A stretch of 32,000 bases of DNA. Source: Haloplanus pelagicus. Its GTDB lineage: Archaea; Halobacteriota; Halobacteria; Halobacteriales; Haloferacaceae. Position numbers and translations under genes: made by a program. A model generated the notes under the pieces. It ran no database searches and was not told the origin of the DNA. It saw nothing but the letters and a program-made list of their open reading frames with translations. Location of the stretch: the NCBI RefSeq assembly GCF_023703795.1, contig NZ_CP098519.1:92229-124228 (forward strand), written 5' to 3'. This document shows, in pieces, positions 8,224-25,996 of the stretch; the stretch's first letter is position 1; every line of letters begins with the position of its first letter.

Positions 8224-8388
8224 TCTGACGACCGGATTCGTGGACGGCTATCCTTTTTGATGGTGTCCGTACGGGTGTTGAAGTCCTTTGGCTGTACCAC
8301 ACCCCTCTGTCGACGCTATCGCCAAGCGCATCCGGATTGCCGGGGTGGTTTGACGCATGTTTCGCCGTTGGCGGCGACCCCCTCGTGA

Positions 8389-8628
8389 ATGAGTTGCTAC
8401 CGGACGGCCGGCCGCTTCTTGTTGCTGGGTGCGGTCTGGGGGACGGCGTTCATGGCGACGGACGTCGGCCTCGCAGATCTCCCCGTGGTACCGTTCGCAG
8501 CCGTGCGCTTTGATGTCGCTGCCGCGCTGCTGTTCGCCGCCGTTCTCGTCTCTGGTTCGGATGTCTATCCTCGGACTCTTCTGGTTTCAGTTTCACCCTC
8601 CTTGACGAACTCTTTTGTCGGTCTTTAA
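8389..8628 (+). pseudogene. Truncated EamA/DMT-family transporter gene (only the first one to two TM helices remain)
   Basis: LLLGAVWGTAFMATDVGLADLPVVPFAAVRFDVAAALLFAAVLV looks like the N-terminus of a roughly 300-aa EamA permease. After about codon 58 the sequence loses the family pattern and stops at 8628, which coincides with a drop in GC. No remainder of the gene was found downstream. Confidence 0.45.
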
Positions 8629-8640
8629 CGGTGTGGCAGT

Positions 8641-10014
8641 ATGCGACGATACGGTATCATTCTGCTACTTATCATTGTAGTCGTGGCCGCTGGCACTACG
8701 GCTACAACGGGTCAACAAGTCCAAGACAGAGCCCCCGAAAGTTGCATAGATGCTTTTACAGCCCAACAGTGGGAGTCGGCTCAGCTTACGGGAGAGATAC
8801 GACTCGCTGAGGATGACACAGTCCAAATCACATACGATGGCCACGGTGAATTGACCCCATTCGAGGTTGACCCACCGACTGCGGCTACCGTTGTCAACAC
8901 GACTGGGTTCTCGAACACTGCGGATGGGACCTACACCTTTGGTGGACGGCAGGCAACACCGACCCTCACGTATCGCGTACAAACTGGATTATCCACCAAT
9001 GAATCTTATGCGAGCGGTGAGTCGTGGCTTCATACTCCGCTCCCTTCGTACATTCAGACCCGCGTCCACCACATCACCCCCGAAGGCGGCCACGTTGGTA
9101 CGCAATTCGCCTATCTTGGAAATTATTCAGCTGTAACGCTTCAAGATGGATGCCACGAAGTCACGGGCATCATCGCTGACGAGAGCCGGTCGGCGGTTGA
9201 CAGTGAGCAAATCGAGCGGCAGCTCCGATACGCGATGACTGAGTACGATGTTGGACACCGTTACAGCAAGACAACAGTCTTCGTAACACCGGGAAAAGTC
9301 GATCCCACTTCCAGTGGTGAAGCACACAAAGCGGACGCGTGGGCGTCCAGTCGACATGGGCCATCGAATACCACCCATATCGTACTCCACGAGTACTTAC
9401 ATACGAGACATTCTTTCGGTGATGCTTCACTAGGCGAGATGAGTTGGTTCAATGAGGGGACAACGGAGTATATGTCTCTACGACTAATGCTGGGCGCTGG
9501 GACACTTTCGCCACGAGAATACAACAACCGATTGGAGAACGCCGCAGGGGGGCGTGCTGTCCTATCGAACCGGTCAACGTGGACCGATCATCGTACCCCA
9601 TACCAGCGGGGAACGTTGTTTAATGCCCATTTAGACCACCGTATCCGAAACGCTACAGACGGCGAGAGTACGCTCGAAGATGTCGTCGCTGTCGCGAACG
9701 CTAAACAGGGGAGCCAGTTCCTTCCGTCTGAACGTGCGGTATTCGATATTGTCGCAACTGTTTCCAATACAGACACAGCGACATGGGCAAACAGTACTGT
9801 AGATAGCAGTCAGGCTTTCGGAATTTCACCAATCCAACAAAAGACCACTCCTGAATGGGAGTACCGGATCTCAATCGCTCACGAAAATCTAAGCGAACAA
9901 CCTCTACTTGGTGTCTTCTTCGGATTGGTGCTTGGGGTTCTGCTGATGACAATTTCCGAAGAGTACGTCAATGGGTCGGAGGATGACAGCCCAGAAAAAT
10001 CAGAAAACAGCTAG
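8641..10014 (+). CDS. Secreted, C-terminally membrane-anchored zinc metallopeptidase (gluzincin / M1-like HExxH...E)
   Basis: N-terminal signal/TM MRRYGIILLLIIVVVAAG. Zinc site IVLHEYLHTRH followed 17 residues later by WFNEGTTEY, which resembles the M1 'W(L/F)NEG' third-ligand motif. C-terminal TM LLGVFFGLVLGVLLMTI plus an acidic tail. There are many NxS/T sequons. Confidence 0.7.
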   Translation: MRRYGIILLLIIVVVAAGTTATTGQQVQDRAPESCIDAFTAQQWESAQLTGEIRLAEDDTVQITYDGHGELTPFEVDPPTAATVVNTTGFSNTADGTYTFGGRQATPTLTYRVQTGLSTNESYASGESWLHTPLPSYIQTRVHHITPEGGHVGTQFAYLGNYSAVTLQDGCHEVTGIIADESRSAVDSEQIERQLRYAMTEYDVGHRYSKTTVFVTPGKVDPTSSGEAHKADAWASSRHGPSNTTHIVLHEYLHTRHSFGDASLGEMSWFNEGTTEYMSLRLMLGAGTLSPREYNNRLENAAGGRAVLSNRSTWTDHRTPYQRGTLFNAHLDHRIRNATDGESTLEDVVAVANAKQGSQFLPSERAVFDIVATVSNTDTATWANSTVDSSQAFGISPIQQKTTPEWEYRISIAHENLSEQPLLGVFFGLVLGVLLMTISEEYVNGSEDDSPEKSENS

Positions 10015-10453: not shown

Positions 10454-10482
10454 TGTGAACTGTAGTGGGAAGAGTGGCCGGC

Positions 10483-10839
10483 CTACGCGTCGGTGAACTC
10501 AGCAAGCGAGTGGTTGGGACTGCTGTGGTTCCACTTTCCGATCTGAATGAGATCGAAGGTCTCGATGTCGTCTTCAACAGCGGCGTCAAGTGTGGCAGTA
10601 ATGTCGGCAGAGAGACTGTCGACACGGATCGCCGTCACTGGGTGACCTCCAAGCTTGTAGCCGGTTGCGAGACTCGTGGGAGAGACGACGATTACCGCAC
10701 CACCATCGACAGCGTCGAGGGCGAGTTGGGCATCCCGATGCTGGAGGACGGTCGCATCCAGCTCATCGACAGGGAAGAGACAGACTGCTGTCCCGTACTC
10801 AATGCTCGCCCCCGCTGTGTAGAAATGCCCTATAGACAT
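10483..10839 (-). CDS. Hypothetical acidic protein
   Basis: A 118-aa acidic ORF (MSIGHFYTAGASIEYG...). It competes with the 5' part of plus-strand ORF 10465..11775. I prefer this one because the plus frame must cross an obviously non-coding low-GC stretch (10840-10950). GC3 is similar in both frames, so the call is not firm. Confidence 0.5.
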   Translation of the reverse strand: MSIGHFYTAGASIEYGTAVCLFPVDELDATVLQHRDAQLALDAVDGGAVIVVSPTSLATGYKLGGHPVTAIRVDSLSADITATLDAAVEDDIETFDLIQIGKWNHSSPNHSLAEFTDA

Positions 10840-10874
10840 AATCAGCTGCTACTATATGCCCTATGGACATTAAT
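10825..10874. repeat. Imperfect tandem duplication of the start region of gene 10483..10839
   Basis: ATGCCCTATAGACATAAT (10825-10842) and ATGCCCTATGGACATTAAT (10856-10874). On the minus strand both copies read ATG TC(T/C) ATA GGG CAT, which encodes MSIGH. Confidence 0.75.
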
Positions 10875-10953
10875 ATTGCGGCTCCAATCAATACCGAGTC
10901 ATGCGACTCGGCCAGCCCGTAAGTTGAATATCCAGCCCGTTTCAGCGCTGTGT

Positions 10954-11775
10954 GTGGCTCGAAATCTGTACGAGAGTACCGCGGCGGCACTCGCGACTGG
11001 ATCTGTGGAACACATTTCGTACGAGACCCCACCGAGCACTGCTGCCGAGTGGCTCGTGACGAATGGCTACGATGCGGCGCCAGTTGACCGGGACGGCGAC
11101 CCAGTTGGATTCATCCACGAAGATGACGTCGACACCGACGATACTGGTGACACGCTTGAGGCGGCGCTCACACCGCTCACTATTGACTACATGATTAGCG
11201 GTGACACGTCGTTCGCGGAGAGTCTCGCAGCGCTAATCGAGGAGCCGGTCTATTTCCTTGGGGGCCACAACCGGATCACCGGCATCCTCACCCGTGCGGA
11301 TCTGAATACCCCACCCGCACGGATGTATCTCTTCGATCGGATCACGTACTTGGAAGAACATCTGCGAGAGATCATCTCGTCGGAGGTTTCCGATTGGAAG
11401 CAGACTCCTGTGAGTACCGACGAAATCGATGGTATCGAAACCCGGTATGCGGATGCCAAAGCCGCTAACGTGGAATTATCAGAGATTCACTACGCCCAAT
11501 TTTCGACACTCAGTACGATTGTGTCGAGCGTCGAGGCCTGTTGGCAAGAGTGCGGGTTTTTAATGGCAGGTGAGGCGCAGTCGCGGCTTCACGACATTAC
11601 GGAACTCCGGAACGATGTCGCCCACGCCAATCTCCTCGTTGAGCATACGGAAGATGATAAGTTTCTGAGTAGCGGCCGGACGACTGAGAATCTGTATACT
11701 CTCCTTGCGGACATCGAACAGATCCTGACCAGCCTACAGGGTGCGGGGTACGCGCCGGAGACTGCCACAGAGTAG
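10954..11775 (+). CDS. CBS-domain pair fused to a C-terminal HEPN-like domain (putative ligand-regulated RNase)
   Basis: CBS-like segments are ...WLVTNGYDAAPVDRDGDPVGFIHEDDV and ...PVYFLGGHNRITGILTRADLN. The C-terminal ITELRNDVAHAN carries an R-x4-H HEPN motif. I place the start at the in-frame GTG at 10954 (MARNLYEST...) rather than the ORF-track ATG at 10465. The start is uncertain. Confidence 0.62.
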   Translation: MARNLYESTAAALATGSVEHISYETPPSTAAEWLVTNGYDAAPVDRDGDPVGFIHEDDVDTDDTGDTLEAALTPLTIDYMISGDTSFAESLAALIEEPVYFLGGHNRITGILTRADLNTPPARMYLFDRITYLEEHLREIISSEVSDWKQTPVSTDEIDGIETRYADAKAANVELSEIHYAQFSTLSTIVSSVEACWQECGFLMAGEAQSRLHDITELRNDVAHANLLVEHTEDDKFLSSGRTTENLYTLLADIEQILTSLQGAGYAPETATE

Positions 11776-11826
11776 CAATCCGTCGGACGTCCAACTACTA
11801 TCATCCCTCGCTGATTCGTCTGATCT

Positions 11827-12807
11827 ATGAGTGACTCAGCGGCAGGCGTCCTCCTTGGTCTCGCCTGCGGTGATGCCCTCGGCCGTCCGGTAGAGTTCCA
11901 GCAAACAACCTCCATCCAGCGCCGGCACGGCTGCGTTACGGAGATGCTGGCCAACGGGACCCATGGCCAACCGGCTGGCACGATCACGGACGACACCGAG
12001 ATGGCGCTGTGTGTGGCTCGAAGCCTCGTTGGTTCGGGCCACTTCGACCCCGTTGACGTCGCAGACCGATTCGTTGAGTGGTATCAATCAGACCCGTTTG
12101 ACATTGGACTACTCACTAGCACAGTCCTCAGGCGACTCCGAGATGGTGACGCGTGGGATGAGGCTGGGATCGATGAGTGGAAACACCTCCCAGAGGGATC
12201 CAATGCGGGCAACGGCAGCGTCATGCGATGTGCCCCGTACGGGATCGCGTTTGCTGGTGAGTCCGATGTACTCGTGACTGCGAGTCGTGTGTCGTCGGCG
12301 ATCACGCATGCCGACCCGCGCTGCCAATGGGGATGTGTGATTCTAAACGCGACGCTCGCTGGCCTGCTCGGGGGTAAGGAACAGCCGCTTGCGTCCGCGC
12401 TTGAACTCGCAGTGAATGCGCCTGCTGAACTCCGGAGCGCGTGTGAAGCTGTTCAGGCAATTGTGGAAGGGTCTGAGTCTGCGGCGGATCTTGAACTCGC
12501 TAATTCGGGCTATGTCGTCACAACACTTCAGGCGGGGCTCTATCACGGATTGACTGCTGAGAGTGCGGAGGACGCCATCGTCGATGCGGTGATGCTGGGT
12601 GGTGATACAGATACGATTGCGGCCGTTGCTGGGGCTGTTGCGGGGGCACGGTTTGGCGCGTCCGGGCTTCCCGATCGTTGGTTCCGGGCAATCGATGAGA
12701 CGGCCGAACTCACAAAGTTAGGCCAGCAACTCGATACGATGGATTTGTCGCTTCCTGAGTCAGTCGCTGAGAATCTTTCGAGTAGCCAATTTGATTTACA
12801 AGCCTAA
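11827..12807 (+). CDS. ADP-ribosylglycohydrolase family protein (DraG/ARH-like)
   Basis: N-terminal GLACGDALGRPVEF, central TDDTEMAL, and C-terminal GGDTDTIAAVAGAVAGARFG are the characteristic family motifs. Confidence 0.88.
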   Translation: MSDSAAGVLLGLACGDALGRPVEFQQTTSIQRRHGCVTEMLANGTHGQPAGTITDDTEMALCVARSLVGSGHFDPVDVADRFVEWYQSDPFDIGLLTSTVLRRLRDGDAWDEAGIDEWKHLPEGSNAGNGSVMRCAPYGIAFAGESDVLVTASRVSSAITHADPRCQWGCVILNATLAGLLGGKEQPLASALELAVNAPAELRSACEAVQAIVEGSESAADLELANSGYVVTTLQAGLYHGLTAESAEDAIVDAVMLGGDTDTIAAVAGAVAGARFGASGLPDRWFRAIDETAELTKLGQQLDTMDLSLPESVAENLSSSQFDLQA

Positions 12808-13155: not shown

Positions 13156-13845
13156 CTACGAGAACTCCGGCCGTTCCGCGTACGCAATCGGATCGCGTGA
13201 CTCGGCATTCCGGAATGCTTCGAGTCGGAACGCACACGCATCACACGTTCCGCACGCCGGTTCCTCATCCCGGTAACACGACCACGTCATGTCGTATGGC
13301 ACACCGAGCTCCAACCCCCGCTCGGCGATCTCCGTTTTCGACCATTCGACGAACGGCGCTTTCAACTCGATCTGTGTCTCCGGTTTTGTCCCGACATCGA
13401 TCACGTTCTGAAAAGCGTCGAAAAACGCCGGGCGACAGTCAGGGTATCCGGAGAAATCCTCCGAATGTGCGCCGATAAACAGCGCCTCTGAATCAGTCGC
13501 CTCCGCGTACGACGTCGCCATCGACAACAAATTCGCATTCCGGAAGGGGACGTACGATGTCGGAATGTCGTCACTCTCAAGATCTGCGTCGGCCACGTCC
13601 ATCTCCTCGTCGGTCAAACTCGACGCACCGATCTGGGAGAGATGTCCCGTTTCGATATGGAGGAAGTCAGCCGCATCAACTTCCTCCGCGAGCGCTTTCG
13701 CACACTCGTACTCCTTGTCTTCGGTGCGCTGACCGTACGACGTATGGAGGAAGTACGGCTCGTAGCCCTGCACGATCGCCTCGTAGACAGCCGTCGCACT
13801 ATCCATCCCACCAGACACCAGAATCACCGCGCTTTTGTTGCTCAT
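13156..13845 (-). CDS. queC: 7-cyano-7-deazaguanine (preQ0) synthase
   Basis: PP-loop AVILVSGGMDSATA, YVPFRNANLL, and a C-terminal zinc cluster WSCY...CGTCDACAFR. The length is 229 aa. Confidence 0.95.
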   Translation of the reverse strand: MSNKSAVILVSGGMDSATAVYEAIVQGYEPYFLHTSYGQRTEDKEYECAKALAEEVDAADFLHIETGHLSQIGASSLTDEEMDVADADLESDDIPTSYVPFRNANLLSMATSYAEATDSEALFIGAHSEDFSGYPDCRPAFFDAFQNVIDVGTKPETQIELKAPFVEWSKTEIAERGLELGVPYDMTWSCYRDEEPACGTCDACAFRLEAFRNAESRDPIAYAERPEFS

Positions 13846-13939
13846 ATCTGCTTGGTTGCGTCGAATCGATTATCGCTCTGTTCACCACACCGCACTCGCG
13901 GCACCGTGCTCTTCTGACCGGCCTCTAAGGATAACGTGC

Positions 13940-14716
13940 TCATGTCCCCGGTGCGTCGTTCCATAGGTCCACGTGGAGTCGCGGCGTGTACCGGTAGCCG
14001 TACTCCATCGCCAGCTCGGCGACCTCGCTTCGCGTCCCGTCGAGTTGCTCGCGCGTCATGCCCTCCGGCATCAACAACACGTCATCATCGGCGACAGTCG
14101 TCGCCGTCGCTTTTTGTACTCGGTCAACCAGGTCCGTAATCTCCGGGAGGTCCGTCTCGTCGGTCACGACGAACTTGAGTTGCGTCTCGTACGTATCGAC
14201 CATCTGGGACAACGCATCCATGTCAATTCGATTCTGTTCGTGTTTCTCCTCCCACTCGCCCTCCCCCTTCGGGTCACGATCGGGTGTTGGCGTGCTGCTC
14301 GCCAGCTTCGGGCTGATACTCGCTAAATCGATCGGCGCGTCCCGGTAGATTGTCCCGTTCGTTTCCACCGTCGTGTGATAGCCGTCTGCGGCGAGTCGTT
14401 CGAGGAGTTCGACTGACTCCTCATGGATGAGTGGCTCCCCACCTGTGAGGACGACGTGGCCAGCCTGTTCGTGGGACTGTACTTCTTCCACGATCGAGTC
14501 GATGTCGCGCCACGCCCCGGTCGGCTCCCACGAGGTATGGTACGAATCACAGAACCAACACCGCAGATTACATCCAGAGGTCCGTACGAAGACGGAGGGG
14601 ACGCCTGCGAGCGTTCCCTCGCCCTGTAACGAGTAGAACACCTCGTTGATCGGGAGGCCCTCACCAGTCGCGTCAGCGTCTGTTGCGGGCTCTTCGATAT
14701 CACTAGCAACCGGCAT
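13940..14716 (-). CDS. queE: 7-carboxy-7-deazaguanine synthase (radical SAM)
   Basis: INEVFYSLQGEG, FVRTSGCNLRCWFCDS (Cx3Cx2C) and VVLTGGEPL. Its start overlaps the queD stop (TGATG at 14714-14718). Confidence 0.93.
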   Translation of the reverse strand: MPVASDIEEPATDADATGEGLPINEVFYSLQGEGTLAGVPSVFVRTSGCNLRCWFCDSYHTSWEPTGAWRDIDSIVEEVQSHEQAGHVVLTGGEPLIHEESVELLERLAADGYHTTVETNGTIYRDAPIDLASISPKLASSTPTPDRDPKGEGEWEEKHEQNRIDMDALSQMVDTYETQLKFVVTDETDLPEITDLVDRVQKATATTVADDDVLLMPEGMTREQLDGTRSEVAELAMEYGYRYTPRLHVDLWNDAPGT

Positions 14717-15177
14717 CAGTACGACGCACAGAGCTCCTTGGTCTCGCTCACCGACACCGACACATCCGTCACGGTATCCGGGAACTCATCGAGCATGCGT
14801 TGTTCGAGGAGGAGGCTCATCACCTCCGCCGTCGGCGGGTGTTCCAACACCACGAGCGCGTCGCCGTCACCAGACGCCTCGAACGCATCTACAAGCGGGT
14901 CGCCCTCCTCAACCAGGAACCGGTGATCCCACGCGTCGATGACGTCCGTGACGTCGCCTTTGTCGACGACCCAGCCCTCCTCGGTGAGTTCACCGGTCAC
15001 TTCGACAGTGATCTCGTAGTTGTGGCCGTGTGGCCGCGAACACTTCCCGTCGTGATGTAGGATTCGATGACCCGAACTGATCCGGATTGGATTGTCGCCT
15101 CCGATTTTGAGTGTCCGCTGGCCTGCCTCGACCAAGTTTTCAGCCGTAGAATCATCTTGTGATATGCTTTGAGACAT
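14716..15177 (-). CDS. queD: 6-carboxy-5,6,7,8-tetrahydropterin synthase
   Basis: SSGHRILHHDGKCSRPHGHNYEITVEV carries the His/Cys/HGH catalytic and zinc motif of QueD/PTPS. It is translationally coupled to queE. Confidence 0.92.
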   Translation of the reverse strand: MSQSISQDDSTAENLVEAGQRTLKIGGDNPIRISSGHRILHHDGKCSRPHGHNYEITVEVTGELTEEGWVVDKGDVTDVIDAWDHRFLVEEGDPLVDAFEASGDGDALVVLEHPPTAEVMSLLLEQRMLDEFPDTVTDVSVSVSETKELCASY

Positions 15178-15416: not shown

Positions 15417-15788
15417 ATGAGTAAACGAGAAGATCAACGAGAGAGTAGCTTGTCCTTGAGTGAAATAGACTCCACGCGAGCCCCTGATGAAAAGCAAATG
15501 GACGGCAAATCTGGAGAGATGCTGTATCAGCTCAAATTTCACAAAAGGCAGGGAGCAACCACCGAGGTGGGAAAAGTAACTGAAATCGGATCGTTAGAGG
15601 ATTCGCCTCCCGTTGATCTTCAGGCACTTCAGACAGATACCTATACTCACTATGCTATCTTCCGTTTGAAAGATCGATCAACGACACTGATTGTACAAGA
15701 CGAATCTGGAAATACGCACAAAGCGCTTTCACTTGGCAAAGATACTGTGAAAGTACCTTACAAAGTGAGTATTACCATCCAATCTTAG
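15417..15788 (+). CDS. Hypothetical protein
   Basis: A 123-aa ORF at the left end of the island with no recognisable motif. It is the only sizeable ORF in a 960-bp stretch. Confidence 0.4.
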   Translation: MSKREDQRESSLSLSEIDSTRAPDEKQMDGKSGEMLYQLKFHKRQGATTEVGKVTEIGSLEDSPPVDLQALQTDTYTHYAIFRLKDRSTTLIVQDESGNTHKALSLGKDTVKVPYKVSITIQS

Positions 15789-16137: not shown

Positions 16138-17205
16138 ATGCGACGATACCAATTCGATGACGTCGGCGAGATAGAATTCGTGGCGTCTGTCGCGCAAATC
16201 AATCGTTCTCAGCTTATCGATATCGTGGAGGACCTCGAGGAATACAACCTTGTAGAGTATGCTCTTGGTCGGATGATGTTTTGTCCGCTTACCTCCTCAG
16301 AGATTGCGGTTGATTATCTTGAATCGCTTTCATCGTCCTACGATCTCACATTCGCTTGTGATTCGGGAGGGTATGAGTCTCAAGTCAACGATGAATATAC
16401 GATGAAAGACATCTATACATTTGATCGAGAATACTACTTGTCGACAGACTGGCCTGACGAATTAGTTCTGCCCGACCAAGTGCCCGTAGAAGGAGACGAC
16501 GAGGCAACGATAGAGCAGAAGGTCCAGGACACAATCTCTCTCTCTCGAATGCTCTATAATGAACTACCAAGCGACAAGCAAGAGCGCGCAGTGCCAGTAA
16601 TCCAGGGGCATACTAAACAACAAATCGTTGAGTGTCTCGATGTTTATAGGAAGTTTGACAAAATAAATAAAATTGGGTTTGGGAGCTTTGGTACCGGAGG
16701 AGTAAATGGGGGTGTGAATTATTTGAATGAGGAGAATCTCGAACTACTACAATTCGTTGTGAAAGAGGCTCGGAAGTATGATCTAGACGTCCATGCATTC
16801 GGAATTGGCGGGCCAACTTCAATTCCTATCCTATATCAGTGTGGTGTTGATACGTTCGATTCGACTGGCTGGATACGATCTGGGGGTTATGGAAATATCT
16901 TTTTCCCATTTAAAAGTCGGCTTAATGTTACGCACCTTCGCAATCGGTCCGGTCCTACAGTCTTCCGAGAGGAATTGAGGGAAATAAAAGAGGAGACCGG
17001 ACATGAATGTCCGTACTGTCGGTCATTCGAATCCCTGCAAAACAGTCGTCAACATCGAATTTTACATAATCTTATTGTCATGCGTGAGATGACAGACATG
17101 ATCCTAGAATATTCGCTCGAAGAACTCATCGAGATGATGAATCCTAACTCAAAGTATACCGGCTACCTAAAGAAATTTACATCAACCGAGTCGGTCCGGA
17201 ACTGA
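16138..17205 (+). CDS. Queuine/archaeosine tRNA-ribosyltransferase (TGT) superfamily protein, short and PUA-less: DpdA-like candidate DNA-guanine transglycosylase
   Basis: CDSGGYES (D75 at 16360-16362) matches the TGT 'DSGGFQ' catalytic Asp. VPVIQG matches 'ivQGg', HAFGIGGP matches 'l.GvG.P', and GVDTFDS matches 'GvDmFDc' (second catalytic Asp). The zinc site GHECPYC...RILHNL is HxCxxC...HNL where canonical TGT has CxCxxC...HNL (17002-17067). At 355 aa it has no PUA or tRNA-binding extension. Confidence 0.82.
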   Translation: MRRYQFDDVGEIEFVASVAQINRSQLIDIVEDLEEYNLVEYALGRMMFCPLTSSEIAVDYLESLSSSYDLTFACDSGGYESQVNDEYTMKDIYTFDREYYLSTDWPDELVLPDQVPVEGDDEATIEQKVQDTISLSRMLYNELPSDKQERAVPVIQGHTKQQIVECLDVYRKFDKINKIGFGSFGTGGVNGGVNYLNEENLELLQFVVKEARKYDLDVHAFGIGGPTSIPILYQCGVDTFDSTGWIRSGGYGNIFFPFKSRLNVTHLRNRSGPTVFREELREIKEETGHECPYCRSFESLQNSRQHRILHNLIVMREMTDMILEYSLEELIEMMNPNSKYTGYLKKFTSTESVRN

Positions 17206-17252
17206 TTATCTAGAGGTAGATATTTGTTTGAGGTGTCTAATTGAATGACGAG

Positions 17253-18101
17253 ATGAGTCATTACACTTCAAAATTCCATATTAGTGACCCTGGCCCACAG
17301 GAGTTGTATGAATATTTGGATACTGTGGAGGCAACATCGCCATCATCGAATCCAGAACTTCTTGAATCGGCCAGAGACCTTGGCCACTCAATCGGGAGCA
17401 AGGAGAAATCTACAGAAGGTTCGGTGCTTGGCCGGCTCGGGATTGTAGATCCCACCGATCAATTTCAGTTTACTGAACTCGGTGACTCCCTGGTCGATAT
17501 CATGTATAGGGATCGGAACCTGTTTAATACGGTACTTCATTTTCTTTATTACTCTGCTTTTGAGAGATACCCAGACAGATATGTATTTATGTCGTATACA
17601 TACAGAGAGATGACCAACTATCTCTATGATAATTCCCCGTTTAGCACTTTTCGGGGAGAGCGTGGAACAATTGTTGGTGAAGTCACCGAATTAGCAGAAC
17701 AGAGTCCAGATGTCGACGTTTCCAAGACACGAAGCGGCGTGTCACTTAGTACAAAGAGTTTCAATAATTATCTGCAGTATCTTGCGGAACTATCCCCCGA
17801 GGTGCTAGTGGAGGATGACTCTGGGAGTCCCGGATTCGAGCGACGTGCGTTCTGCCCTCCGGAACTTATGATCTTGGCCGTGGATCATATCTATAAGCAA
17901 AACGAGACAGATTATGAGACGCTCCTCAGAGTGACAGATGATACCAAAGTTCGAATTCAACAGATGTGCCTCCTCTCTGATGATGGGTTCGATGAGGTAA
18001 CCGAGTACGCTGAACAGGCGTATCCATTCTTCTCAAAGAAACATGACTTTGGTCTCAACCTTCGATTAGACCGAGAAGTAACTCTTGATGACCTCCAATA
18101 G
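17253..18101 (+). CDS. Hypothetical protein (second gene of the island operon)
   Basis: The ORF-track start is TTG at 17241. The first ATG is at 17253 (MSHYTSKF...). No catalytic motif recognised. Its stop is followed within 1 nt by the next gene's ATG. Confidence 0.6.
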   Translation: MSHYTSKFHISDPGPQELYEYLDTVEATSPSSNPELLESARDLGHSIGSKEKSTEGSVLGRLGIVDPTDQFQFTELGDSLVDIMYRDRNLFNTVLHFLYYSAFERYPDRYVFMSYTYREMTNYLYDNSPFSTFRGERGTIVGEVTELAEQSPDVDVSKTRSGVSLSTKSFNNYLQYLAELSPEVLVEDDSGSPGFERRAFCPPELMILAVDHIYKQNETDYETLLRVTDDTKVRIQQMCLLSDDGFDEVTEYAEQAYPFFSKKHDFGLNLRLDREVTLDDLQ

Positions 18102-18591: not shown

Positions 18592-21500
18592 ATGGGACAG
18601 GCGAATGCGCAAAATATCGAGTCCTCTCTTCGAGAACTCAATGACACGCTGAACAAAGATGAGGGGATTGTCAATACATCAAGCGCTCACCGATTTTTAG
18701 ACCAGCCGAGCGATATCGAGACCGAATACATTGAGTACGCTCGGACTCACCTGATCCAGCCAGACATTCAACGGTTTATCGATTCGTTGACTGGAGCCCT
18801 CGAAGATGAAGATCTGAATAAATCTGTTCCTGGATACATTGTGGGCCCCTACGGGTTTGGGAAGACCAGTACAACGGGAAAAGTTTGGTACCTTCTTGAC
18901 CAGGAAGACAACTACATTACTACCCCTCCGATCTATTTCGATGAACTACAGTCAATTGTCGACGCCGTGTACGGATGGATGCGGTTCCGCTTGAGGGACC
19001 GAGAAGAGCATCTAGAAACCCTCGAACAGCGGTACCAGGCCAAAGTGACCAGTAACGTCGAAGATATTGTTGACCAAACTGGATTCGATGACAAAGATCA
19101 AACCCGGGAAGAGTTCGAGCGACTAATCGAGTCGGGATCGATTGATATCGAATTCTCGGTCCAACACGTTCTGGATTTCCTTTCTGAATGTAATCAGATC
19201 GCAAAAGACGCTGGGTACAAAGGCCTCGTCGTTATTGCCGACGAACTTCAGCAGTTCATATCCAGTCACTCGTCTGACAAAGAAGCATACTCTAAGCTAC
19301 GTGATATTGCAAAAAGCACAGCCCTCGGCCTGAACGAAGGCGACGGCTTGGGTCTTCTGTTCACCATGGACGATGGTCTCCACGGAGACCTGGACGTGAA
19401 TGCAGACGATGTTCTTGCGCGGTTAGCAGAACAGAACGTTCAACTCAACTTAGCGAATGTTTACAACCGAGATTTCCCGACTAAGCTGTGGGAAAGTCTG
19501 GCTGAAACTTACGGTTTCAAGGACAGACGCTACGAAGTAATTACCGAGGATACGCTAGACGCAATTGGTCAGATCTGTGAACGTGGACCTCCTCTTTCAA
19601 ACGGCCCTCGTTCAGTTGTGGACATTCTCACGATCGCTATCGAGCACTACCTCTCTGAGTCGGAGGCGTTTGATGCTCTTGACCTCGCCAATGCGTACTA
19701 TAATGGCGTTGTCCGATTCAAAGGAGACCACATCAAAACCGCAATCACAGAGGCGATTAATTCTGATCAAATAAGTACCCCCGATCGTGAGAATTTCATC
19801 AAGCTGTGTGGGGTATTCCCTCGAGGAGTCTCAGATGACCTACTGAAGCAGTATGGGGTTCACGAGGCGAAAGAACAGGTCAAAGGAGAACTTCACGGAC
19901 AGCTCATCATCACACACGAGGAAGGGCGCACGCTCAAACGTCTTGAGCGGGAAGGAGAGGATCGTGGGATCAAAGACGAACTGTTCACACAGTTCTATCG
20001 GGATTATGACACCACAGACATCTACGATTCGAACGCTTCTGAGACGTTCCGAGAATTTGTTGTTTCGGAAGAACTCTTCCCCGCTGTTCGAGGAAAGAGT
20101 CTGAGCAGCTGGGTTACCGAACACGCCTTTGAACCCGAAACTGGAGGAGTGTACGCGGCAGTCTTTCGTGGGTCATTCAACGGGCAAGAGTACCCTGAGC
20201 GGCTTATTGAAATCCGAATGGGCACGGATGCTACATCAGTTAAATCGCCCGATGAAGGCACAGATACTGACCTCACGATTGGCTTTGCCGTTAACATGGA
20301 GAAGCAGACTGAAGTCACCCCTCACATCGAACGGGTATCTACTGACGAGGTTCTTCTACATCTAGACTTAGCTGATTCTTTCGACAGCCTCCCGAGCAAT
20401 ATCGTTATGTTGGAAGATTACATGAGTCCGGAAGATGTCAGCCCCCATCTGCTGCTCTCCTTACATCACTTCATGCGTAATTGGGAGGAGAACCAAACAG
20501 TCAATCCCAACCAGGAGACACAGTTGGAATATATCCGTGACCAGTTAGTCACGCAAAGCATTCAGAAGGCGTTTGGCCCTCCCCTGAATGGGGACGACTT
20601 CCTCGATGAATCAGGGAGTAGTCGCCGGACCGTTGATCCGTCAAAGGTCGTCGAGAAAATCTTCAACCGTGTAATCGAAGAGGTCTATCCTGATTATAAA
20701 ACTCTCTTCATCTCGGACAATTACCAGACCTTCTTAGATGACTATGAATCTCTCCTAGTAGGAAACGATCCGAATATCCGGATCTCACAAAAGCGGGGTA
20801 ATACCCCAATTGAAGGGACAAAAAGCGATATTTCCAACGCGATCGGGGTATCTAGTAACTCGACAGCAAAAACACGTCTTGATAAACAATTTGAAGATCT
20901 CGTTGACACTGAAGTCTGGCAGGGCAAGGATGCCAGGGTTCGATTGACCCTTCATCCCCTTGAGGAACTTCTTAAAGACCATATCGAGGAGCAAGAGAAG
21001 GAAACTGTCGCCGTCAGTGAGTTATATGATGTAGCCGGGGAGAAAGGGTACCGGCAGGAAGAAGTTGACTGGGCAGTCCGCCTCCTTGTTGGTCGAGATT
21101 TCATCAAGCATGATCAAAACGATGAAACGGTCGAACTGAGCGACATTGCTATCGACATCGACCAAGTCAAATCTCGGCTGGAATCACTCCGAAACACGGC
21201 TGCGGAGCTCAACGAAATCTCGAACGAGTGGAGTGAGTATGACTCGATCACTAATGAGTTGAATCGCCTTGAGGAGGAACTCAGCGGAACGACGAATGAC
21301 GACATTGAGATACTCGATGATCTTAACGCCGAGCTAGAAGAGGTAGATTCGCAGATCTCGACGCAGATCAAGGCCACAAGTGCGACCCTTCGTGAACGTG
21401 CCCGAGGAACAATAGACAGACTCAAAGGACTTTCATCCAGCAACAAGCCTCGCGATCTGAAAAAGACTGTCGAGAAGTCTAATGTTCCGTTCGGCCTCCA

Positions 21501-22683
21501 TATCAAAGACATCGAGACTGAACTATCATCCAACTTTACAAAAGCAACTACAGAGGCCGACTCTGCCCGCTCAGATCTTGATACAGATCTCGAGATTGCA
21601 TCTGGCACGGCAGCTCTGAGTGAGATTAATACTCTACAGGACTCAATTGAGGAGGCGAAAGAAATCGCTGAGCAGGTTGATGAAGAATTAGAGGATATCA
21701 AAGAGGACGCGGCTGACTACGCGGATTGGTGTCGACTTGCAAATGACATGGACGCTGCTCGTTCGGATATTGTTCAGTATGCAAATACTCATCCTGACAA
21801 CAGTGCCGCGATGTCAATCAGGGATGAGCTTACCGCTCTGATGAGTGAGATTCAGACTGAGTTCCAGAAGGGCAGTGACCACGATGACTTCCCTCAGGCA
21901 CTGCGGAATGCCGAAATGTATCGGCAGCAGTTCGAAGACCTCAAAGACCAATTCGAGGAGATAACTCAGGGGGACGAAGAGAACTTCAATTACCGGAAGA
22001 ATGTGCTTGAGAACACGCTGAAGATTGGTACTTCCGGCCACCCAAGTATCAGACAAAACTTGAGTCCTAACAATGCTGAGAAGTCACGTAATGACCTCAA
22101 GCATGAGTTCCGCCGCCAGCTGGTTGAGAACAGCGATGGAATCGAAGATGTAAAGTCCGATATCAAATCGATTGAGACCAGCATTGAGTATGCTGAGTTG
22201 TTGAATCAGGTTCCGGATGAAGCTGACCCGACTCCGGCTGATATCCGCGATCAGATAGTCGATTTCGAATCTACTATTGAAGATATCCATCAGGCTGTCA
22301 GTCAAATGGATATCACTTCGGCTATCCGACTTCCGACTGAGGGTGGCCGTTCGAACTCGTTCCCCAACACCGATGAGAAATTGAGTCTCTCGATTGACAA
22401 CCGCGAGGTGAACGTCGGCGAACGAATCGACGAAATCCGAGATTCAATTGAGGCACTCCATCAAGACGTTCGTGAGTGGCGACAGGTTACTGAGACTCCC
22501 CCAGAAGATCTTGAATATATTATGGATGAACTGGACTATCGGGATCAGTCTGACTTGGAGAGCGTCCTAATTTCAGTCTCTGAAAAGAAAGGTGACACCG
22601 ACGTTGCAGAGTTCTTTGCCGATCTGGAAACCTTATTCGAGGGGAACCACATCACGGTCTCGATCAAAAGCGAACATAGGTAA
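18592..22683 (+). CDS. Large P-loop ATPase, BrxC/PglY-like (DUF499-type), with a long coiled-coil C-terminal half
   Basis: Walker A VGPYGFGKTS (18841-18867) and Walker B LVVIADELQQF (DE at 19240-19245). The size (1363 aa), N-terminal ATPase position and gene order immediately before a PglZ gene match BREX BrxC/PglY. Residues from about 845 to 1290 (about 21127-22460) are E/D/L/I-rich and heptad-like (…LRNTAAELNEISNEWSEYDSITNELNRLEEELS…). The family assignment is inference. The P-loop call is read directly from the sequence. Confidence 0.8.
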   Translation: MGQANAQNIESSLRELNDTLNKDEGIVNTSSAHRFLDQPSDIETEYIEYARTHLIQPDIQRFIDSLTGALEDEDLNKSVPGYIVGPYGFGKTSTTGKVWYLLDQEDNYITTPPIYFDELQSIVDAVYGWMRFRLRDREEHLETLEQRYQAKVTSNVEDIVDQTGFDDKDQTREEFERLIESGSIDIEFSVQHVLDFLSECNQIAKDAGYKGLVVIADELQQFISSHSSDKEAYSKLRDIAKSTALGLNEGDGLGLLFTMDDGLHGDLDVNADDVLARLAEQNVQLNLANVYNRDFPTKLWESLAETYGFKDRRYEVITEDTLDAIGQICERGPPLSNGPRSVVDILTIAIEHYLSESEAFDALDLANAYYNGVVRFKGDHIKTAITEAINSDQISTPDRENFIKLCGVFPRGVSDDLLKQYGVHEAKEQVKGELHGQLIITHEEGRTLKRLEREGEDRGIKDELFTQFYRDYDTTDIYDSNASETFREFVVSEELFPAVRGKSLSSWVTEHAFEPETGGVYAAVFRGSFNGQEYPERLIEIRMGTDATSVKSPDEGTDTDLTIGFAVNMEKQTEVTPHIERVSTDEVLLHLDLADSFDSLPSNIVMLEDYMSPEDVSPHLLLSLHHFMRNWEENQTVNPNQETQLEYIRDQLVTQSIQKAFGPPLNGDDFLDESGSSRRTVDPSKVVEKIFNRVIEEVYPDYKTLFISDNYQTFLDDYESLLVGNDPNIRISQKRGNTPIEGTKSDISNAIGVSSNSTAKTRLDKQFEDLVDTEVWQGKDARVRLTLHPLEELLKDHIEEQEKETVAVSELYDVAGEKGYRQEEVDWAVRLLVGRDFIKHDQNDETVELSDIAIDIDQVKSRLESLRNTAAELNEISNEWSEYDSITNELNRLEEELSGTTNDDIEILDDLNAELEEVDSQISTQIKATSATLRERARGTIDRLKGLSSSNKPRDLKKTVEKSNVPFGLHIKDIETELSSNFTKATTEADSARSDLDTDLEIASGTAALSEINTLQDSIEEAKEIAEQVDEELEDIKEDAADYADWCRLANDMDAARSDIVQYANTHPDNSAAMSIRDELTALMSEIQTEFQKGSDHDDFPQALRNAEMYRQQFEDLKDQFEEITQGDEENFNYRKNVLENTLKIGTSGHPSIRQNLSPNNAEKSRNDLKHEFRRQLVENSDGIEDVKSDIKSIETSIEYAELLNQVPDEADPTPADIRDQIVDFESTIEDIHQAVSQMDITSAIRLPTEGGRSNSFPNTDEKLSLSIDNREVNVGERIDEIRDSIEALHQDVREWRQVTETPPEDLEYIMDELDYRDQSDLESVLISVSEKKGDTDVAEFFADLETLFEGNHITVSIKSEHR

Positions 22684-22688
22684 CTCCC

Positions 22689-23864
22689 GTGTCTACCCGC
22701 ACTATTGAGTCACTGTCTGCCTTGGCTGAAGCGACACGTGACGGACCAGTTGTCGCAAATATCGGAGGGCTCGAGTCTCGAGTACTACAAAACAGGCATG
22801 GTATCGATACCCTTGAATCGCTTGAAGAGTTTTACCGCCTCTATGAGTCTCCGACTAATTTGTTTGAAACCGATGTGATCATTCGGGATCAGGGATCTAA
22901 GCCGTCCTTTGATAGGTCACTTACGCTCTACAACCCACCTTCGATAGAACAGGTCGAATACACTGGCACCGTGTACGATAGGTCGCTTAATGGACTCATA
23001 TCAGAAGGGTCGATTTCTTGGGACGATGTGGAGAGCACAACCACTTGTCAATCAGAGGTCGGCGATCTCATCACGGAGGCGGCATCTGATGTTGATGTTA
23101 TTGCGCTGGTTATTGTTGATGGCCTCTCCTATCAGGATTGGACAGACTCAGGCTATGAGGCAGAGCCAATCTATGTTGATTGCCCAACACGTACAGATTG
23201 TGGCTACCCAAATGTCGTCCGTGGGGCATCCAACGGGAAGCATCTCCAATATCGGCTTTTCAACGAGGGATATAAAACCCGGAAGGCGTTCACCTACTGG
23301 GAACGTAAGGATAACGACCTTTCTGACGAATTGCACGATGGTTTCTCCAAGAACGACGTAATCGGAAACATCCAGGACTTTGCTGATTCCATCTCATATT
23401 TACAGACCCACGATTGGTATCGACCGAAGACCTATCTCCAGTTCACTCTTACCGGTCCTGAACGTGTAGCGCACCGAATGAAGGAGGATCCTGTGATCCA
23501 GAGTGAGGTAGACGCAGTTCATCAAAAGTTGTCTGACCTCCGTGAAACAATCAGCAAAGAAACGGACTCATTCCGTATTTTCGCTGTTGCCGACCATGGT
23601 ATTCTCTGGCGGATGGATACTGACTTTGAGGCACTTGATGAAAAGTGGAAGCAGGGAATTCGTCGGGACTATGAAGACCCTCCAGCCAGCGCATCTGTTC
23701 CTGAGTCCGTTGGTGAAACATCCTTCTGGGCTGGTCAGCAATATCTCCGGCTTTATCACCCACACATATTCAATAACCTACGAAGTAACGAACCAGGAGT
23801 ACACGGTGGCTTTTCGTACCAAGAGTCCATTGTTCCGTTAATTGAATACGAGGATCTGAAATGA
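22689..23864 (+). CDS. pglZ: PglZ-domain (alkaline-phosphatase superfamily) protein, short form
   Basis: GTG start 5 nt after the upstream stop. VIALVIVDGLSYQDW (D144 at about 23118), FAVADHGILW (DH at about 23592) and the C-terminal GVHGGFSYQESIVPLI (about 23802) match the three metal-ligand and terminal motifs I associate with PglZ ('iDg(l/m)r', 'sDHG', 'HGG.s..E..vP'). At 391 aa it is shorter than typical BREX PglZ. Confidence 0.68.
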   Translation: MSTRTIESLSALAEATRDGPVVANIGGLESRVLQNRHGIDTLESLEEFYRLYESPTNLFETDVIIRDQGSKPSFDRSLTLYNPPSIEQVEYTGTVYDRSLNGLISEGSISWDDVESTTTCQSEVGDLITEAASDVDVIALVIVDGLSYQDWTDSGYEAEPIYVDCPTRTDCGYPNVVRGASNGKHLQYRLFNEGYKTRKAFTYWERKDNDLSDELHDGFSKNDVIGNIQDFADSISYLQTHDWYRPKTYLQFTLTGPERVAHRMKEDPVIQSEVDAVHQKLSDLRETISKETDSFRIFAVADHGILWRMDTDFEALDEKWKQGIRRDYEDPPASASVPESVGETSFWAGQQYLRLYHPHIFNNLRSNEPGVHGGFSYQESIVPLIEYEDLK

Positions 23865-25030
23865 CACAAGAAATATTCATTGGCGAGGAACGTGATAGCG
23901 GCGAGGAAACGCTTATTGACACTTCGAAGGCCCGTGCTCTCTTCGTTTGTGGGAAGCGAGGGACCGGCAAGAGCTATTCGTTGGGAAACGTCATCGAGGA
24001 GGTCAACCGAGAGATGCCCGACACAGTTCCCCTTGTTGTTGACCCGATGGGGATTTACTGGACGATGGCCGAACCAAATGACGAACAGCAAGATCTCCTC
24101 TGGGATTGGGGAATGCAGCCGACTGGGTTTGACACTACACTCCTCGTTCCGGGCGATCCAACAGAACGTTACGGACCTGAAGTCTACGATGAGATGATGC
24201 GCCGCGGTATCGAAATCGAGAGCCTGCGTCTCAATCCTTCTGACATTTCTCCCGATGGGTGGTGTGAACTCTTCGATCTCAATATAAACAAACCGATGGG
24301 TATTGCGTTGTACCGAGCTGTCCGTTCGCTAAACGAATCTCAAGACTTCTTTGACCTGGACGAGCTCATCGAAGAAGTTGAATACGACGAAAAAGCAAAC
24401 GAGCGGACTGTGGACGCTCTTGTCAATCGTCTGGAGATGGCACACGAATGGGGCATCTTTAGTGACTCATATACAGACATCTGGAACAATCTCGATCCTT
24501 CTCGGGTTAATATTCTCGACGTGAGTGTTCTCGACCCAGGGAAGTACGGTCTTCGTAATTTGGTCGTCTACGTACTGACAAAAAAAATATTTGATGAGCG
24601 ATCGAAAGCGCGCCGTCGAGAGGAACTACAGTTGTCCTCTGATATTCCGAAGGTCTGGCTATTCATCGATGAAGCACACAATTTTGCACCGTCCGGGTCG
24701 TCCTCGCTTGCGAAGGATATCTTGATTCGATGGATCAAGGAGGGACGTCAGCCGGGGCTGTCGCTCGGCATAGCAACTCAACAGCCAAGTGCTGTATCCT
24801 CAGATGTCGTGTCCCAAATGGACTTGATTTTCTGTCACAAAATCACTACTCGCACTGATATTCAGTCGCTGAACGAACTAAGTCAGGAGTACATGGGGAG
24901 TCAGCTGAAGACCTATATCAAGAAAATCGATAAAGTTGGTGAAGCAGTCTGCGTCGATGACGAAAGAGAAGTAGTAACGCAGGTTCAAATGCGACCACGT
25001 ATGAGTCAGCATGGTGGCAGCGGGGCATGA
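23861..25030 (+). CDS. HerA/FtsK-type (DUF87-like) ATPase
   Basis: Walker A FVCGKRGTGKSYS (23951-23974), Walker B VWLFIDEAHNFAP (DE at 24668-24673) and GIATQQPSAV, which fits the 'TQRP' motif of HerA/FtsK/VirB4 ATPases. ATGA overlap with the pglZ-like stop at 23861-23864. Confidence 0.82.
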   Translation: MTQEIFIGEERDSGEETLIDTSKARALFVCGKRGTGKSYSLGNVIEEVNREMPDTVPLVVDPMGIYWTMAEPNDEQQDLLWDWGMQPTGFDTTLLVPGDPTERYGPEVYDEMMRRGIEIESLRLNPSDISPDGWCELFDLNINKPMGIALYRAVRSLNESQDFFDLDELIEEVEYDEKANERTVDALVNRLEMAHEWGIFSDSYTDIWNNLDPSRVNILDVSVLDPGKYGLRNLVVYVLTKKIFDERSKARRREELQLSSDIPKVWLFIDEAHNFAPSGSSSLAKDILIRWIKEGRQPGLSLGIATQQPSAVSSDVVSQMDLIFCHKITTRTDIQSLNELSQEYMGSQLKTYIKKIDKVGEAVCVDDEREVVTQVQMRPRMSQHGGSGA

Positions 25031-25563
25031 CAACAAATATTCAACGATCAAACAATTCTACGGCAGTGCCAACTACAGTCGACCTCCAGATCTCTGACTT
25101 CCTTGTCAAATCAATTAGTAAAAGTGAGAGATCGGTATCAGAATTGAATTCTTTTTTTAATTCTAATCAGATCAAATCTGAACTCCATTGGTTCACTCAT
25201 CGGGACACCCTGGAACGTGCAGCGTCACGGCCTGACCGACGGTTGTTTTATTTTGCACCCCACGATGCGATCATCGGCGGACTCATGATTTGGTGTGAAT
25301 CGAGAGTGCTTGACCAAACGGAAGCACAAATACGCCTTGTTGCTGTTTCACCAGATTATCGAGGCTATGGAATCGGACAGTACTTAGTGAAAAAGGCTAT
25401 TGAATTTGCAAAAGAGCATAATAAGGAATCAATAATCGCGGACGTTGCAGCCGAAGCTCCCGCAGTACAATTCTGGGAGGCTATCGGGTTTCACAAAGTT
25501 GATTCGTACTTTACAAATGGTGGTCGAGAAATGTATCAGATGGAACGGCACCTGAGTAAGTGA
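25027..25563 (+). CDS. GNAT-family N-acyltransferase
   Basis: IRLVAVSPDYRGYGIGQYLVKKAIEFAKE is the acetyl-CoA-binding motif A (R-G-x-G-x-G/A). The downstream FWEAIGF matches motif B. ATGA overlap with the HerA-like stop at 25027-25030. Confidence 0.8.
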   Translation: MTTNIQRSNNSTAVPTTVDLQISDFLVKSISKSERSVSELNSFFNSNQIKSELHWFTHRDTLERAASRPDRRLFYFAPHDAIIGGLMIWCESRVLDQTEAQIRLVAVSPDYRGYGIGQYLVKKAIEFAKEHNKESIIADVAAEAPAVQFWEAIGFHKVDSYFTNGGREMYQMERHLSK

Positions 25564-25597: not shown

Positions 25598-25996
25598 ATG
25601 TCACAGTCCTCTTCCAGTTCTGAACGAAGTTCCTTACTGGACTCTTTTGAAGCCCCGGAGACGTCAGTCGCTCAGGTGTATACGTTTGAAACAGACGAGG
25701 TAACAGCACTCTGTCCGTTCGACTTCGGAGGGCCTGATTACTATGAGTTCACTCTAAAATACGTTCCTTCCGAAGACTGTGTCGAGAGCAAGAGCCTGAA
25801 AAAGTTCCTTGAATCGTATCGTGATGTTGAGATCACTGCCGAAGGACTTGGTGCCGAGATGTATGAAGAAATCACCGAGACAATATCTCCTAAAAAAATG
25901 TACATCCGGCTCGAACAGGCACGGCGAGGTGGGATTGAAGAAACTGTTGAGTTCGGTGATATAGAATTGAAGTCCGCAAGAGAGCAGGTACAATAA
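25598..25996 (+). CDS. queF: QueF-family protein (preQ0 nitrile reductase or QueF-like amidinotransferase; the subtype cannot be decided by eye)
   Basis: TALCPF carries the catalytic Cys (C39, about 25712). GGPDYY carries the preQ0-binding Asp. VESKSLKKFLESYR fits the QueF motif E(S/L)K(S/A)hK(L/Y)(Y/F/W) at 25784-25810. The unimodular size is 132 aa. Confidence 0.83.
   Translation: MSQSSSSSERSSLLDSFEAPETSVAQVYTFETDEVTALCPFDFGGPDYYEFTLKYVPSEDCVESKSLKKFLESYRDVEITAEGLGAEMYEEITETISPKKMYIRLEQARRGGIEETVEFGDIELKSAREQVQ

Follow-up and report, generated by a model that had tools for sequence, protein, structure and literature searches.

BREX-type defence systems are defined by a methyltransferase that marks the DNA of the cell as self. 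A related system, BREX-Related Capture (BRC), was reported from 45 taxa on in silico grounds only (Rakesh & Krishnan, Nucleic Acids Res 2026, PMC12839542), with PglZ, a BrxC-like DUF6079 protein, a STAND NTPase, DUF4007, HerA/FtsK, a GNAT and a TGT as its components. The TGT and the GNAT, which are found in only a subset of the BRC loci and are sometimes fused to each other, are presumed to form the modification module, and no methyltransferase is present. The same study proposed that host DNA is marked with preQ0 in a Dpd-like manner and reported no DpdB or DpdC (PMC12839542). Here, we analyse a TGT-superfamily gene of the archaeon Haloplanus pelagicus, in a stretch of 32,000 nucleotides from NZ_CP098519.1 (referred to as the window; the host assembly consists of 3 contigs and is 99.9% complete). 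Judged by its neighbours and homologues, this gene encodes the TGT component of a BRC system. The best-supported reading, to which we assign a probability of about 0.6, is a DNA-directed role: the enzyme would be the base-exchange subunit of the BRC island and would serve the self-marking of DNA, probably with a preQ1-derived base in this archaeon.

The window TGT is encoded by an uninterrupted open reading frame (ORF) with an ATG start (16138-17205, + strand, 355 aa), with which a low-GC operon of BREX-like defence genes begins. The G+C content falls from 57-61% to 44-49% in the region from about 15.0 to 26.0 kb. The genes of the island and the adjoining biosynthetic cluster are as follows:

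13156..15177, - strand: queC-queE-queD cluster with a host-like G+C content of 57-61% (Pfam QueC E=3.8e-72, Radical_SAM, PTPS)
15417..15788, + strand: 123-aa acidic protein at the island edge, no family match
16138..17205, + strand: TGT-superfamily transglycosylase of the BRC clade, 355 aa (Pfam, profiles, alignment, AlphaFold model)
17241..18101, + strand: 286-aa protein in the place of the BrxA/DUF4007-like DNA-binding component of BRC, no Pfam match (role from PMC12839542)
18085..18504, + strand: small P-loop NTPase, 139 aa, BrxB/STAND-like component of BRC (AAA_25, 26.8 bits)
18592..22683, + strand: BrxC-like (DUF6079-type) ATPase, 1363 aa (Pfam BrxC_BrxD, 27.3 bits, cut-off 22.2)
22689..23864, + strand: short PglZ-like protein, 391 aa (PADLOC PglZ E=3.9e-6)
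23861..25030, + strand: HerA/FtsK-type ATPase, 389 aa (Pfam DUF87 E=4.2e-12; PADLOC HerA E=1.2e-19)
25027..25563, + strand: GNAT acetyltransferase (Pfam Acetyltransf_1 E=2.3e-14)
25598..25996, + strand: unimodular QueF-type preQ0 reductase, 132 aa (TIGR03139, 81.9 bits, cut-off 86.9)

A methyltransferase (PglX) is absent from the island genes. DUF4007 is not recognised by Pfam in the 286-aa protein or in its bacterial homologues, and the label is that of PMC12839542. The HerA-type ATPase is 46-67% identical in related loci. A word-indexed search with the window TGT returned 109 homologues of 195-622 aa, with E values down to 9e-227 and identities up to 94%, which originate in hypersaline metagenomes and in genomes of Halorubrum, Haloprofundus, Halapricum and Halogeometricum, showing that the gene is real and conserved. 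Haloprofundus halophilus (P0077, 41% identity) and Halogeometricum sp. S1BR25-6 (P0086, 44%) both carry a homologue, and the supplementary BRC alignments include these two taxa as well as Halorubrum species (PMC12839542). The assignment of the window TGT to BRC thus follows from the shared gene set and from homologues in the taxa of those alignments. Among 80 relatives of the host, the family is found in 2 of the 15 other genomes of the genus, in 4 of the 48 of the family and in none of the 32 from other families of the order; the window TGT is a patchily distributed accessory gene in a low-GC island. As for the 123-aa protein at the island edge, counterparts with 66-74% identity stand beside the system in loci L011, L090 and L091, and one with 42% identity in L092.

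The same arrangement recurs outside the haloarchaea. Using tblastn on 69 loci drawn from a species-representative genome collection, many of them bacterial, a recurring order was observed of TGT, a ~280-aa protein, a ~170-aa P-loop protein, a ~1330-aa BrxC-like protein, a ~370-aa PglZ and a ~390-aa HerA, which is found in Halobacteria, Methanococcales, Chloroflexota, Poribacteria, Armatimonadota, Acidobacteriota and others. The full order recurs in about 40 of the 69 loci, where the presence of PglZ, HerA and BrxC was judged by tblastn and may be undercounted. According to local profile searches, a homologue of the 286-aa protein lies directly downstream of the TGT in 64 of the 69 loci, and a homologue of the 139-aa P-loop protein holds the same position as in the window in 40. 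A shorter layout, consisting of TGT, the ~280-aa protein, a BrxC-like protein and GNAT, is seen in about 14 loci (L016, L017, L019, L021-L023, L026, L028, L030, L046, L057, L058, L065 and L067) and on the Oscillatoria plasmid NC_019763.1 (L083); PglZ and HerA were not detected by tblastn in the short-layout loci. The GNAT family is present in 52 of the 69 TGT loci (local profile search), most of the remaining ones being truncated contigs, and its gene is placed directly upstream of the TGT, fused to the TGT N-terminus (about 10 ORFs of 460-533 aa) or after HerA. TGT and GNAT therefore form a near-obligate pair, tighter than stated in PMC12839542.

Upstream of the TGT, Chloroflexota loci have a gene for a large protein (588-875 aa) in which Sigma70 regions 2 and 4 occur together with an RNA polymerase alpha-CTD and HARE-HTH, and of which PMC12839542 makes no mention:

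L012:2786-5272
L020:7126-9369
L048:7300-9927
L036:4381-6147

The connection of the island to 7-deazaguanine synthesis is the second line of evidence. The queC of the window is the sole queC of the host genome and lies 961 bp from the TGT, and the operon QueF is likewise the sole QueF. The latter aligns with B. subtilis QueF (4f8b), keeping the catalytic Cys (ALCP) and the NADPH motif ESKSLKKF, by which reductases are told apart from the archaeal QueF-like amidinotransferase. All seven haloarchaeal loci (window, L010, L011, L089-L092) have a QueF at the flank of the operon, and in three genomes of the genus, the window included, queCDE lies next to the system in differing arrangements. In the other two genomes, the que genes are 80-93% identical to those of the window and the TGTs only 47%. 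Archaeal tRNA uses preQ0 and not preQ1, so the one sensible role for QueF is to supply the system with preQ1. Haloferax volcanii possesses queCDE and lacks QueF. A precedent is the halovirus HVTV-1, which carries a QueF gene and has 30% dPreQ1 in its DNA (PMC10516641).

A third line comes from a virus. The family was found in 1 of 2.9 million IMG/VR contigs and in 1 of 50,697 phage records, and a tblastn search of the latter returned no halovirus homologue of the window TGT. The Thermocrinis Great Boiling Spring virus BK013347.1 (L082:3953-5285) encodes a GNAT (150 bits against the family GNAT profile) followed by a family TGT (276 bits), and beside this pair lie genes of DNA replication (sliding clamp, helicase, PD-(D/E)XK nuclease, PolA); BRC genes are absent. 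The viral copy points to GNAT-TGT as a stand-alone module for use on DNA. The published description of the virus is silent on the pair.

Taken together, these lines lead us to propose the following mechanism. By analogy with TGT and DpdA, D241 would attack C1' of the target deoxyguanosine in double-stranded DNA and D75 would protonate the leaving guanine, giving a covalent enzyme-DNA intermediate that a free 7-deazaguanine would resolve. The queCDE genes would provide preQ0, from which the operon QueF would make preQ1. The window TGT would work with the dedicated GNAT acyltransferase, and the inserted base is most likely preQ1 itself or a GNAT-acylated preQ1 derivative. The modified base would then be the self mark, in place of the PglX methyltransferase, and invader DNA that lacks it would be the target of the BrxC-like, PglZ and HerA proteins.

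Every TGT motif quoted in an earlier note on this DNA can be located in the 355-aa product:

residues 74-80: CDSGGYE
residues 152-157: VPVIQG
residues 221-226: FGIGGP
residues 236-242: GVDTFDS
residues 289-294: HECPYC
residues 310-312: HNL

Across a family alignment of 102 homologues, no change is seen at D75, S76, G77, G78, Q82, D113, H219, D241, H289, C294, H310 or N311, and 101 of them have C291. A genome-locus alignment of 70 rows (the window and ORFs of the 69 loci) keeps the three Asp (D75, D113, D241) and H-x-C-x-x-C...H-N in 68. Alignment with TGT enzymes predicts D75 to be the general acid/base, D113 and Q156 to bind the base, and D241 to be the nucleophile; these four align with D93, the D130-equivalent, Q-G and D249 of the TgtA of the host. 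Such conservation suggests that the window TGT is a catalytically competent enzyme.

The earlier note also described a variant zinc knuckle, HECPYC, with His for the first Cys, and comparison with CECPIC of the host TgtA bears this out: in a profile comparison GHECPYC matches PCECPIC column for column, so that His occupies the place of the first zinc Cys of other TGTs. The predicted zinc site consists of H289, C291, C294 and H310, of which the His would be a ligand. Its spacing is HxCxxCx15H, as compared to CxCxxCx22H both in the host TgtA (C279, C281, C284, H307) and in DpdA (C368, C370, C373, H395; PMC10164549). H289 is found in 102 of the 102 family members, showing that the Cys-to-His change is a family signature and not decay, and in 69 of the 70 genome-locus rows. 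The clade would show that the structural zinc site of a TGT can be rebuilt as Cys2His2 and then kept across archaea, bacteria and one virus. A decayed ArcTGT paralogue without essential residues, the case the note had named as refuting it, was checked by alignment and is ruled out, as the catalytic and zinc-site residues are conserved across the family.

The note's description of a protein without C-terminal PUA or C2/C3 domains holds as well. The sole Pfam family at E<=0.01 is TGT (PF01702; residues 111-320, E=1.4e-10, 41.2 bits, cut-off 26.3), PUA and C1-C3 domains were not found in this search, and the AlphaFold2 model built on the 102-sequence alignment (pLDDT 90.8, pTM 0.91) is one barrel that ends in helices 304-345. 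The view that the first ~70 residues are unlike a TGT stands at the level of sequence, where matches to TGT profiles begin at residues 69-111 and none covers this part, and falls at the level of fold. In the model, residues 13-74 supply the opening of an ordinary barrel, three strands alternating with two helices (strand 13-17, helix 23-35, strand 45-48, helix 55-67, strand 71-74), with D75 at the end of the third strand. The N-terminal part is thus modelled as a diverged but canonical TIM-barrel start rather than another domain. Ahead of the DSGG motif, the window TGT is ~18 residues shorter than the host TgtA (D75 vs. D93), from which we infer the loss of an N-terminal beta-lid of ~18-20 residues; only this lid and the C-terminal tRNA-binding domains seem to be absent relative to ArcTGT.

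Alignment of the model to 48,161 representative PDB chains (VIA-align) gave these matches to TGT-family structures, with generic TIM barrels below them at Z <=16:

ArcTGT catalytic domain (1iq8): Z 27.1, root-mean-square deviation 3.2, 309 residues (model 6-355 on chain 12-359)
bacterial TGT (3unt): Z 24.2, 303 residues
QTRT2 (6fv5): Z 22.9, 304 residues
DpdA (7ui4): Z 22.5, 290 residues
Cap10 (9ntn): Z 18.8, 269 residues

A Foldseek search of the PDB returned ~50 Z. mobilis TGT entries at TM ~0.55, from which the families cannot be ranked. In an alignment with the host TgtA (hhalign, probability only 77%), the Gly-rich loop of the window TGT, at the invariant GFGSFxTxG...VN, is longer by a 3-residue insertion. 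In the ArcTGT and bacterial TGT structures this loop lines the 7-substituent pocket, as it would here. In the pairwise PDB sequence match, Gly stands in the place of Val233 of Z. mobilis TGT. An enlarged or remodelled 7-substituent pocket may be read from this alignment, as a lead and not a result.

At the level of sequence, the window TGT belongs to a small and sharply separate clade of the TGT superfamily. The NCBIfam models tgt_general, TgtA and DpdA give only 23-26 bits each (cut-offs 47.6, 350 and 200), and TIGR00430, the bacterial tRNA Tgt, is absent among the NCBIfam matches at E<=0.01. Matches to PDB sequences are all weak and partial, the top one being Z. mobilis TGT (E=5e-4, residues 162-295 only). 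A hidden Markov model search with the family profile against 1.84 billion representative proteins gave 627 matches at E<=1e-3, 232 at E<=1e-10 and 102 at E<=1e-30, and ordinary TGT, ArcTGT and DpdA proteins evidently fall short of significance in it. A second tier (E 1e-48 to 1e-29) keeps HxCPFC...HN without the family-invariant GFGSFxTxG, and a third (E about 1e-16 to 1e-18) consists of short ArcTGT-like proteins with the canonical CxCxxC. These tiers indicate that the Cys-to-His change marks a clade wider than the BRC enzymes, to which ArcTGT-like proteins are nearest.

The second tier constitutes a sister clade of TGT-like proteins of 345-390 aa (P0175-P0212), found in metagenomes only. An Atlas search with them returned only vague TGT, DpdA and viral neighbours.

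Several points weigh against the self-marking proposal. DNA as the substrate is argued from gene context and by analogy only. The window TGT lacks the insertions from which DpdA builds its DNA-binding crescent as well as a DpdB-type partner. Supply of the base is a further difficulty: of 50 other host genomes, only 14 encode a true QueC and 11 encode QueF, against 46 that encode a bona fide bacterial Tgt. Canonical Tgt is present in 46 of 47 bacterial hosts, only about 11 of which have QueC and QueF, so that salvage appears to be the source of deazaguanines in most bacteria that host the system. Either most Chloroflexota hosts salvage deazaguanines, or the substrate of the family differs from what the haloarchaeal loci suggest. 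Three Methanococcales genomes have the system with GNAT and without QueF. An acyl-preQ1 product could therefore not be general, unless the gene pair described below replaces QueF there; that GNAT needs QueF everywhere is ruled out by these genomes. Finally, the viral TGT is frameshifted in the deposited genome: the break comes beyond position 250 of the profile, just ahead of the zinc knuckle, and the CLFC...HNL tail is in another frame.

The pair in question encodes an HGD-D-like protein (PF06050) and a BcrAD/BadFG-type ATPase (PF01869), tightly upstream of GNAT-TGT in the 3 Methanococcales loci:

L033:7702-9455
L050:7739-9367
L041:~7820-9460

It lies inside a block conserved between Methanocaldococcus and Methanothermococcus, the flanks of which are unrelated. 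As a speculation, the pair may be a non-orthologous base-tailoring reductase that takes the place of QueF.

Against the self-marking proposal, four alternatives were weighed. The first, which we regard as unlikely, is that the TGT is an effector or sensor on invader DNA, which excises or exchanges guanine or the 7-deazaguanines of phages and leaves abasic sites or adducts for PglZ and HerA. Most bacterial hosts lack de novo preQ0/preQ1 synthesis, which is awkward for an obligatory self-mark, and the covalent-intermediate chemistry of TGT could in principle end in hydrolysis; the restriction of TGT and GNAT to a subset of BRC loci also indicates that the core works without them (PMC12839542). 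However, QueF and queCDE are linked to the haloarchaeal operon, which argues for a supplied incoming base, and the virus has GNAT-TGT without any nuclease partner from the system, which fits protection of its own DNA. In addition, the system contains no other candidate for a self/non-self marker.

A paralogue directed at RNA or tRNA, which would place a deazaguanine at a non-canonical position of host or viral tRNA in a defence response, is in our estimate improbable. Bacterial tRNA TGTs (~380 aa) also lack PUA and still bind tRNA, and for this reason the argument of the earlier note from a missing PUA to a non-tRNA substrate is weak. The nearest solved structures are tRNA enzymes, namely ArcTGT and bacterial TGT, and insertions for DNA binding of the DpdA type are absent. 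However, a canonical TgtA (497 aa, TIGR00432 603.8 bits, cut-off 350, CECPIC) is encoded on contig 1 of the host, with an ArcS-like gene (a 702-aa frame with a weak TGT-domain match) about 2 kb away, and nearly all bacterial hosts have a canonical Tgt. The gene is moreover strictly embedded in a BREX-like operon of DNA-acting proteins, and the viral copy stands among DNA-replication genes. A housekeeping tRNA enzyme was considered separately and is ruled out by the TgtA elsewhere in the genome.

It is very improbable that the window TGT is a true DpdA which inserts preQ0 into DNA as in the Salmonella Dpd system, a reading that the comparisons with this family largely refute. What speaks for it are the weak profile matches (NCBIfam NF041059, 23.5 bits over residues 78-247; PADLOC DpdA, 22 bits), the three catalytic Asp in common and the Dpd analogy drawn in PMC12839542. 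However, 23.5 bits is far under the cut-off of 200. The DpdA-specific insertions Ins1, Ins2 and the enlarged four-helix Ins8 build the DNA-binding crescent of that enzyme (PMC10164549). The loops after strands 1 and 2 of the model are short (18-22, 5 residues; 49-54, 6 residues), and 69 residues separate D241 from H310 of the predicted zinc site, as compared to 139 between D256 and H395 in DpdA, so all three insertions are absent. The zinc motif differs, domains of dpdB (ParB-like ATPase) and dpdC (DUF328) were not found among the window ORFs, and the operon QueF argues for preQ1 over preQ0. The label "DpdA-type" of the earlier note must for these reasons be given up, all the more as the ArcTGT core is nearer (Z 27.1 vs. 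22.5), and the comparison with DpdA structures that it had suggested confirms a shared barrel without the insertions. What survives of it is the non-tRNA, most likely DNA-directed role, which is favoured by the separate TgtA, the BREX-like operon and the viral pair near replication genes.

That the TGT, like Cap10, binds a nucleobase-protein conjugate made by a partner and regulates or tethers a protein of the system rather than marking bulk DNA can be all but set aside: Cap10 is among the structural matches, TGT folds have already been recruited for protein-linked deazaguanines in defence and the near-obligate GNAT could modify a protein, but Cap10 is the weakest match among the TGT-family structures, it has lost the zinc site that is invariant in the window family, and the operon has neither a Cap9 paralogue nor a CD-NTase.

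The self-marking proposal can be extended further, although only speculatively and with the odds clearly against the extension as a whole. TGT-GNAT would install an N-acyl preQ1, e.g., 7-(acetylamino)methyl-7-deazaguanine, a base so far unobserved in nature, in cellular chromosomes, those of archaea among them, where it would be the self-mark for a BREX-like system without a methyltransferase. The amine precursor would come from QueF in haloarchaea, from the HGD-D/BcrAD-type pair in Methanococcales and from host supply or salvage in bacteria, and the Gly-rich loop and the Cys2His2 site would be adaptations of the clade.

If the self-marking proposal is correct, the methyltransferase of a BREX-type system is replaced here by a base-swapping enzyme. 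The DNA of cellular archaea would then have its first 7-deazaguanine self-mark, the TGT-GNAT module of BRC would gain a first assigned function, and an acylated deazaguanine new to DNA may come to light. The relatives of the source archaeon are culturable haloarchaea, and the question can be tested directly at this locus.

The surroundings of the island contain further genes. Directly after it, window 26569-32000 encodes an AddB-like protein (PD-(D/E)XK nuclease) and an AddA/UvrD-like helicase-nuclease. Window 10465-12807 encodes a 436-aa protein that matches CBS weakly and, after it, an ADP-ribosylglycohydrolase (PF03747, E=2.6e-77). A gene for an Mrr-type restriction endonuclease lies in a patch of 40% G+C with an Orc1/Cdc6 gene nearby (window 3037-4074 and 5265-6293), suggesting that accessory and defence genes gather in this part of contig 2.

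While similar to several described enzymes, the window TGT differs from each of them. First, it shares with ArcTGT/TgtA (1IQ8), its best structural match, equivalent residues at D75/D95, D113/D130, Q156/Q169 and D241/D249, and in profile searches no family with a canonical zinc site is nearer to it than short ArcTGT-like proteins; however, it apparently lacks the N-terminal lid, is without the C1-C3/PUA domains, has His for the first zinc Cys and scores 23.3 bits on TIGR00432, for which the cut-off is 350. Second, DpdA of Salmonella Montevideo (7UI4) has the same TIM barrel (Z 22.5) and three Asp, likewise without the N-terminal lid and PUA, in a defence island that draws on the preQ0 pathway, whereas the window TGT is without Ins1, Ins2 and Ins8, has the HxCxxCx15H motif and is partnered by GNAT and QueF in a BREX-like module. 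Third, Cap10 of type IV CBASS (9NTN) is also a TGT fold in an anti-phage system (Z 18.8), but it has lost the zinc site and binds a protein-linked deazaguanine, and neither a CD-NTase nor the QueC-like Cap9 is found among the operon genes of the window.

Among the viruses with DpdA subfamilies (DpdA1-4), HVTV-1 in particular, which has DpdA4 and QueF, likewise combines a TGT-like enzyme with QueF in a haloarchaeal setting. Phages tailor the amine of preQ1, DpdM by methylation and DpdN by formylation; in the window family, which is almost absent from viruses and is encoded by cells in a defence operon, the tailoring enzyme would be the GNAT. DpdA4 is recognised by DUF6610 (PF20314) (PMC10516641), which the window TGT does not match in Pfam at E<=0.01. 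BRC itself is the closest described system, already published in silico in 2026. That account is silent on QueF and preQ1, on the HxCxxC zinc site and any structural feature of the TGT, including its lack of the DpdA insertions, on how nearly obligate the pairing of TGT with GNAT is, and on the viral pair (PMC12839542). In comparison with the published system, the window locus adds QueF and adjoins the only queC of the host, and the Cys2His2-type site, the near-obligate GNAT, the coupling to QueF and queCDE and the viral copy are additions to what was described.

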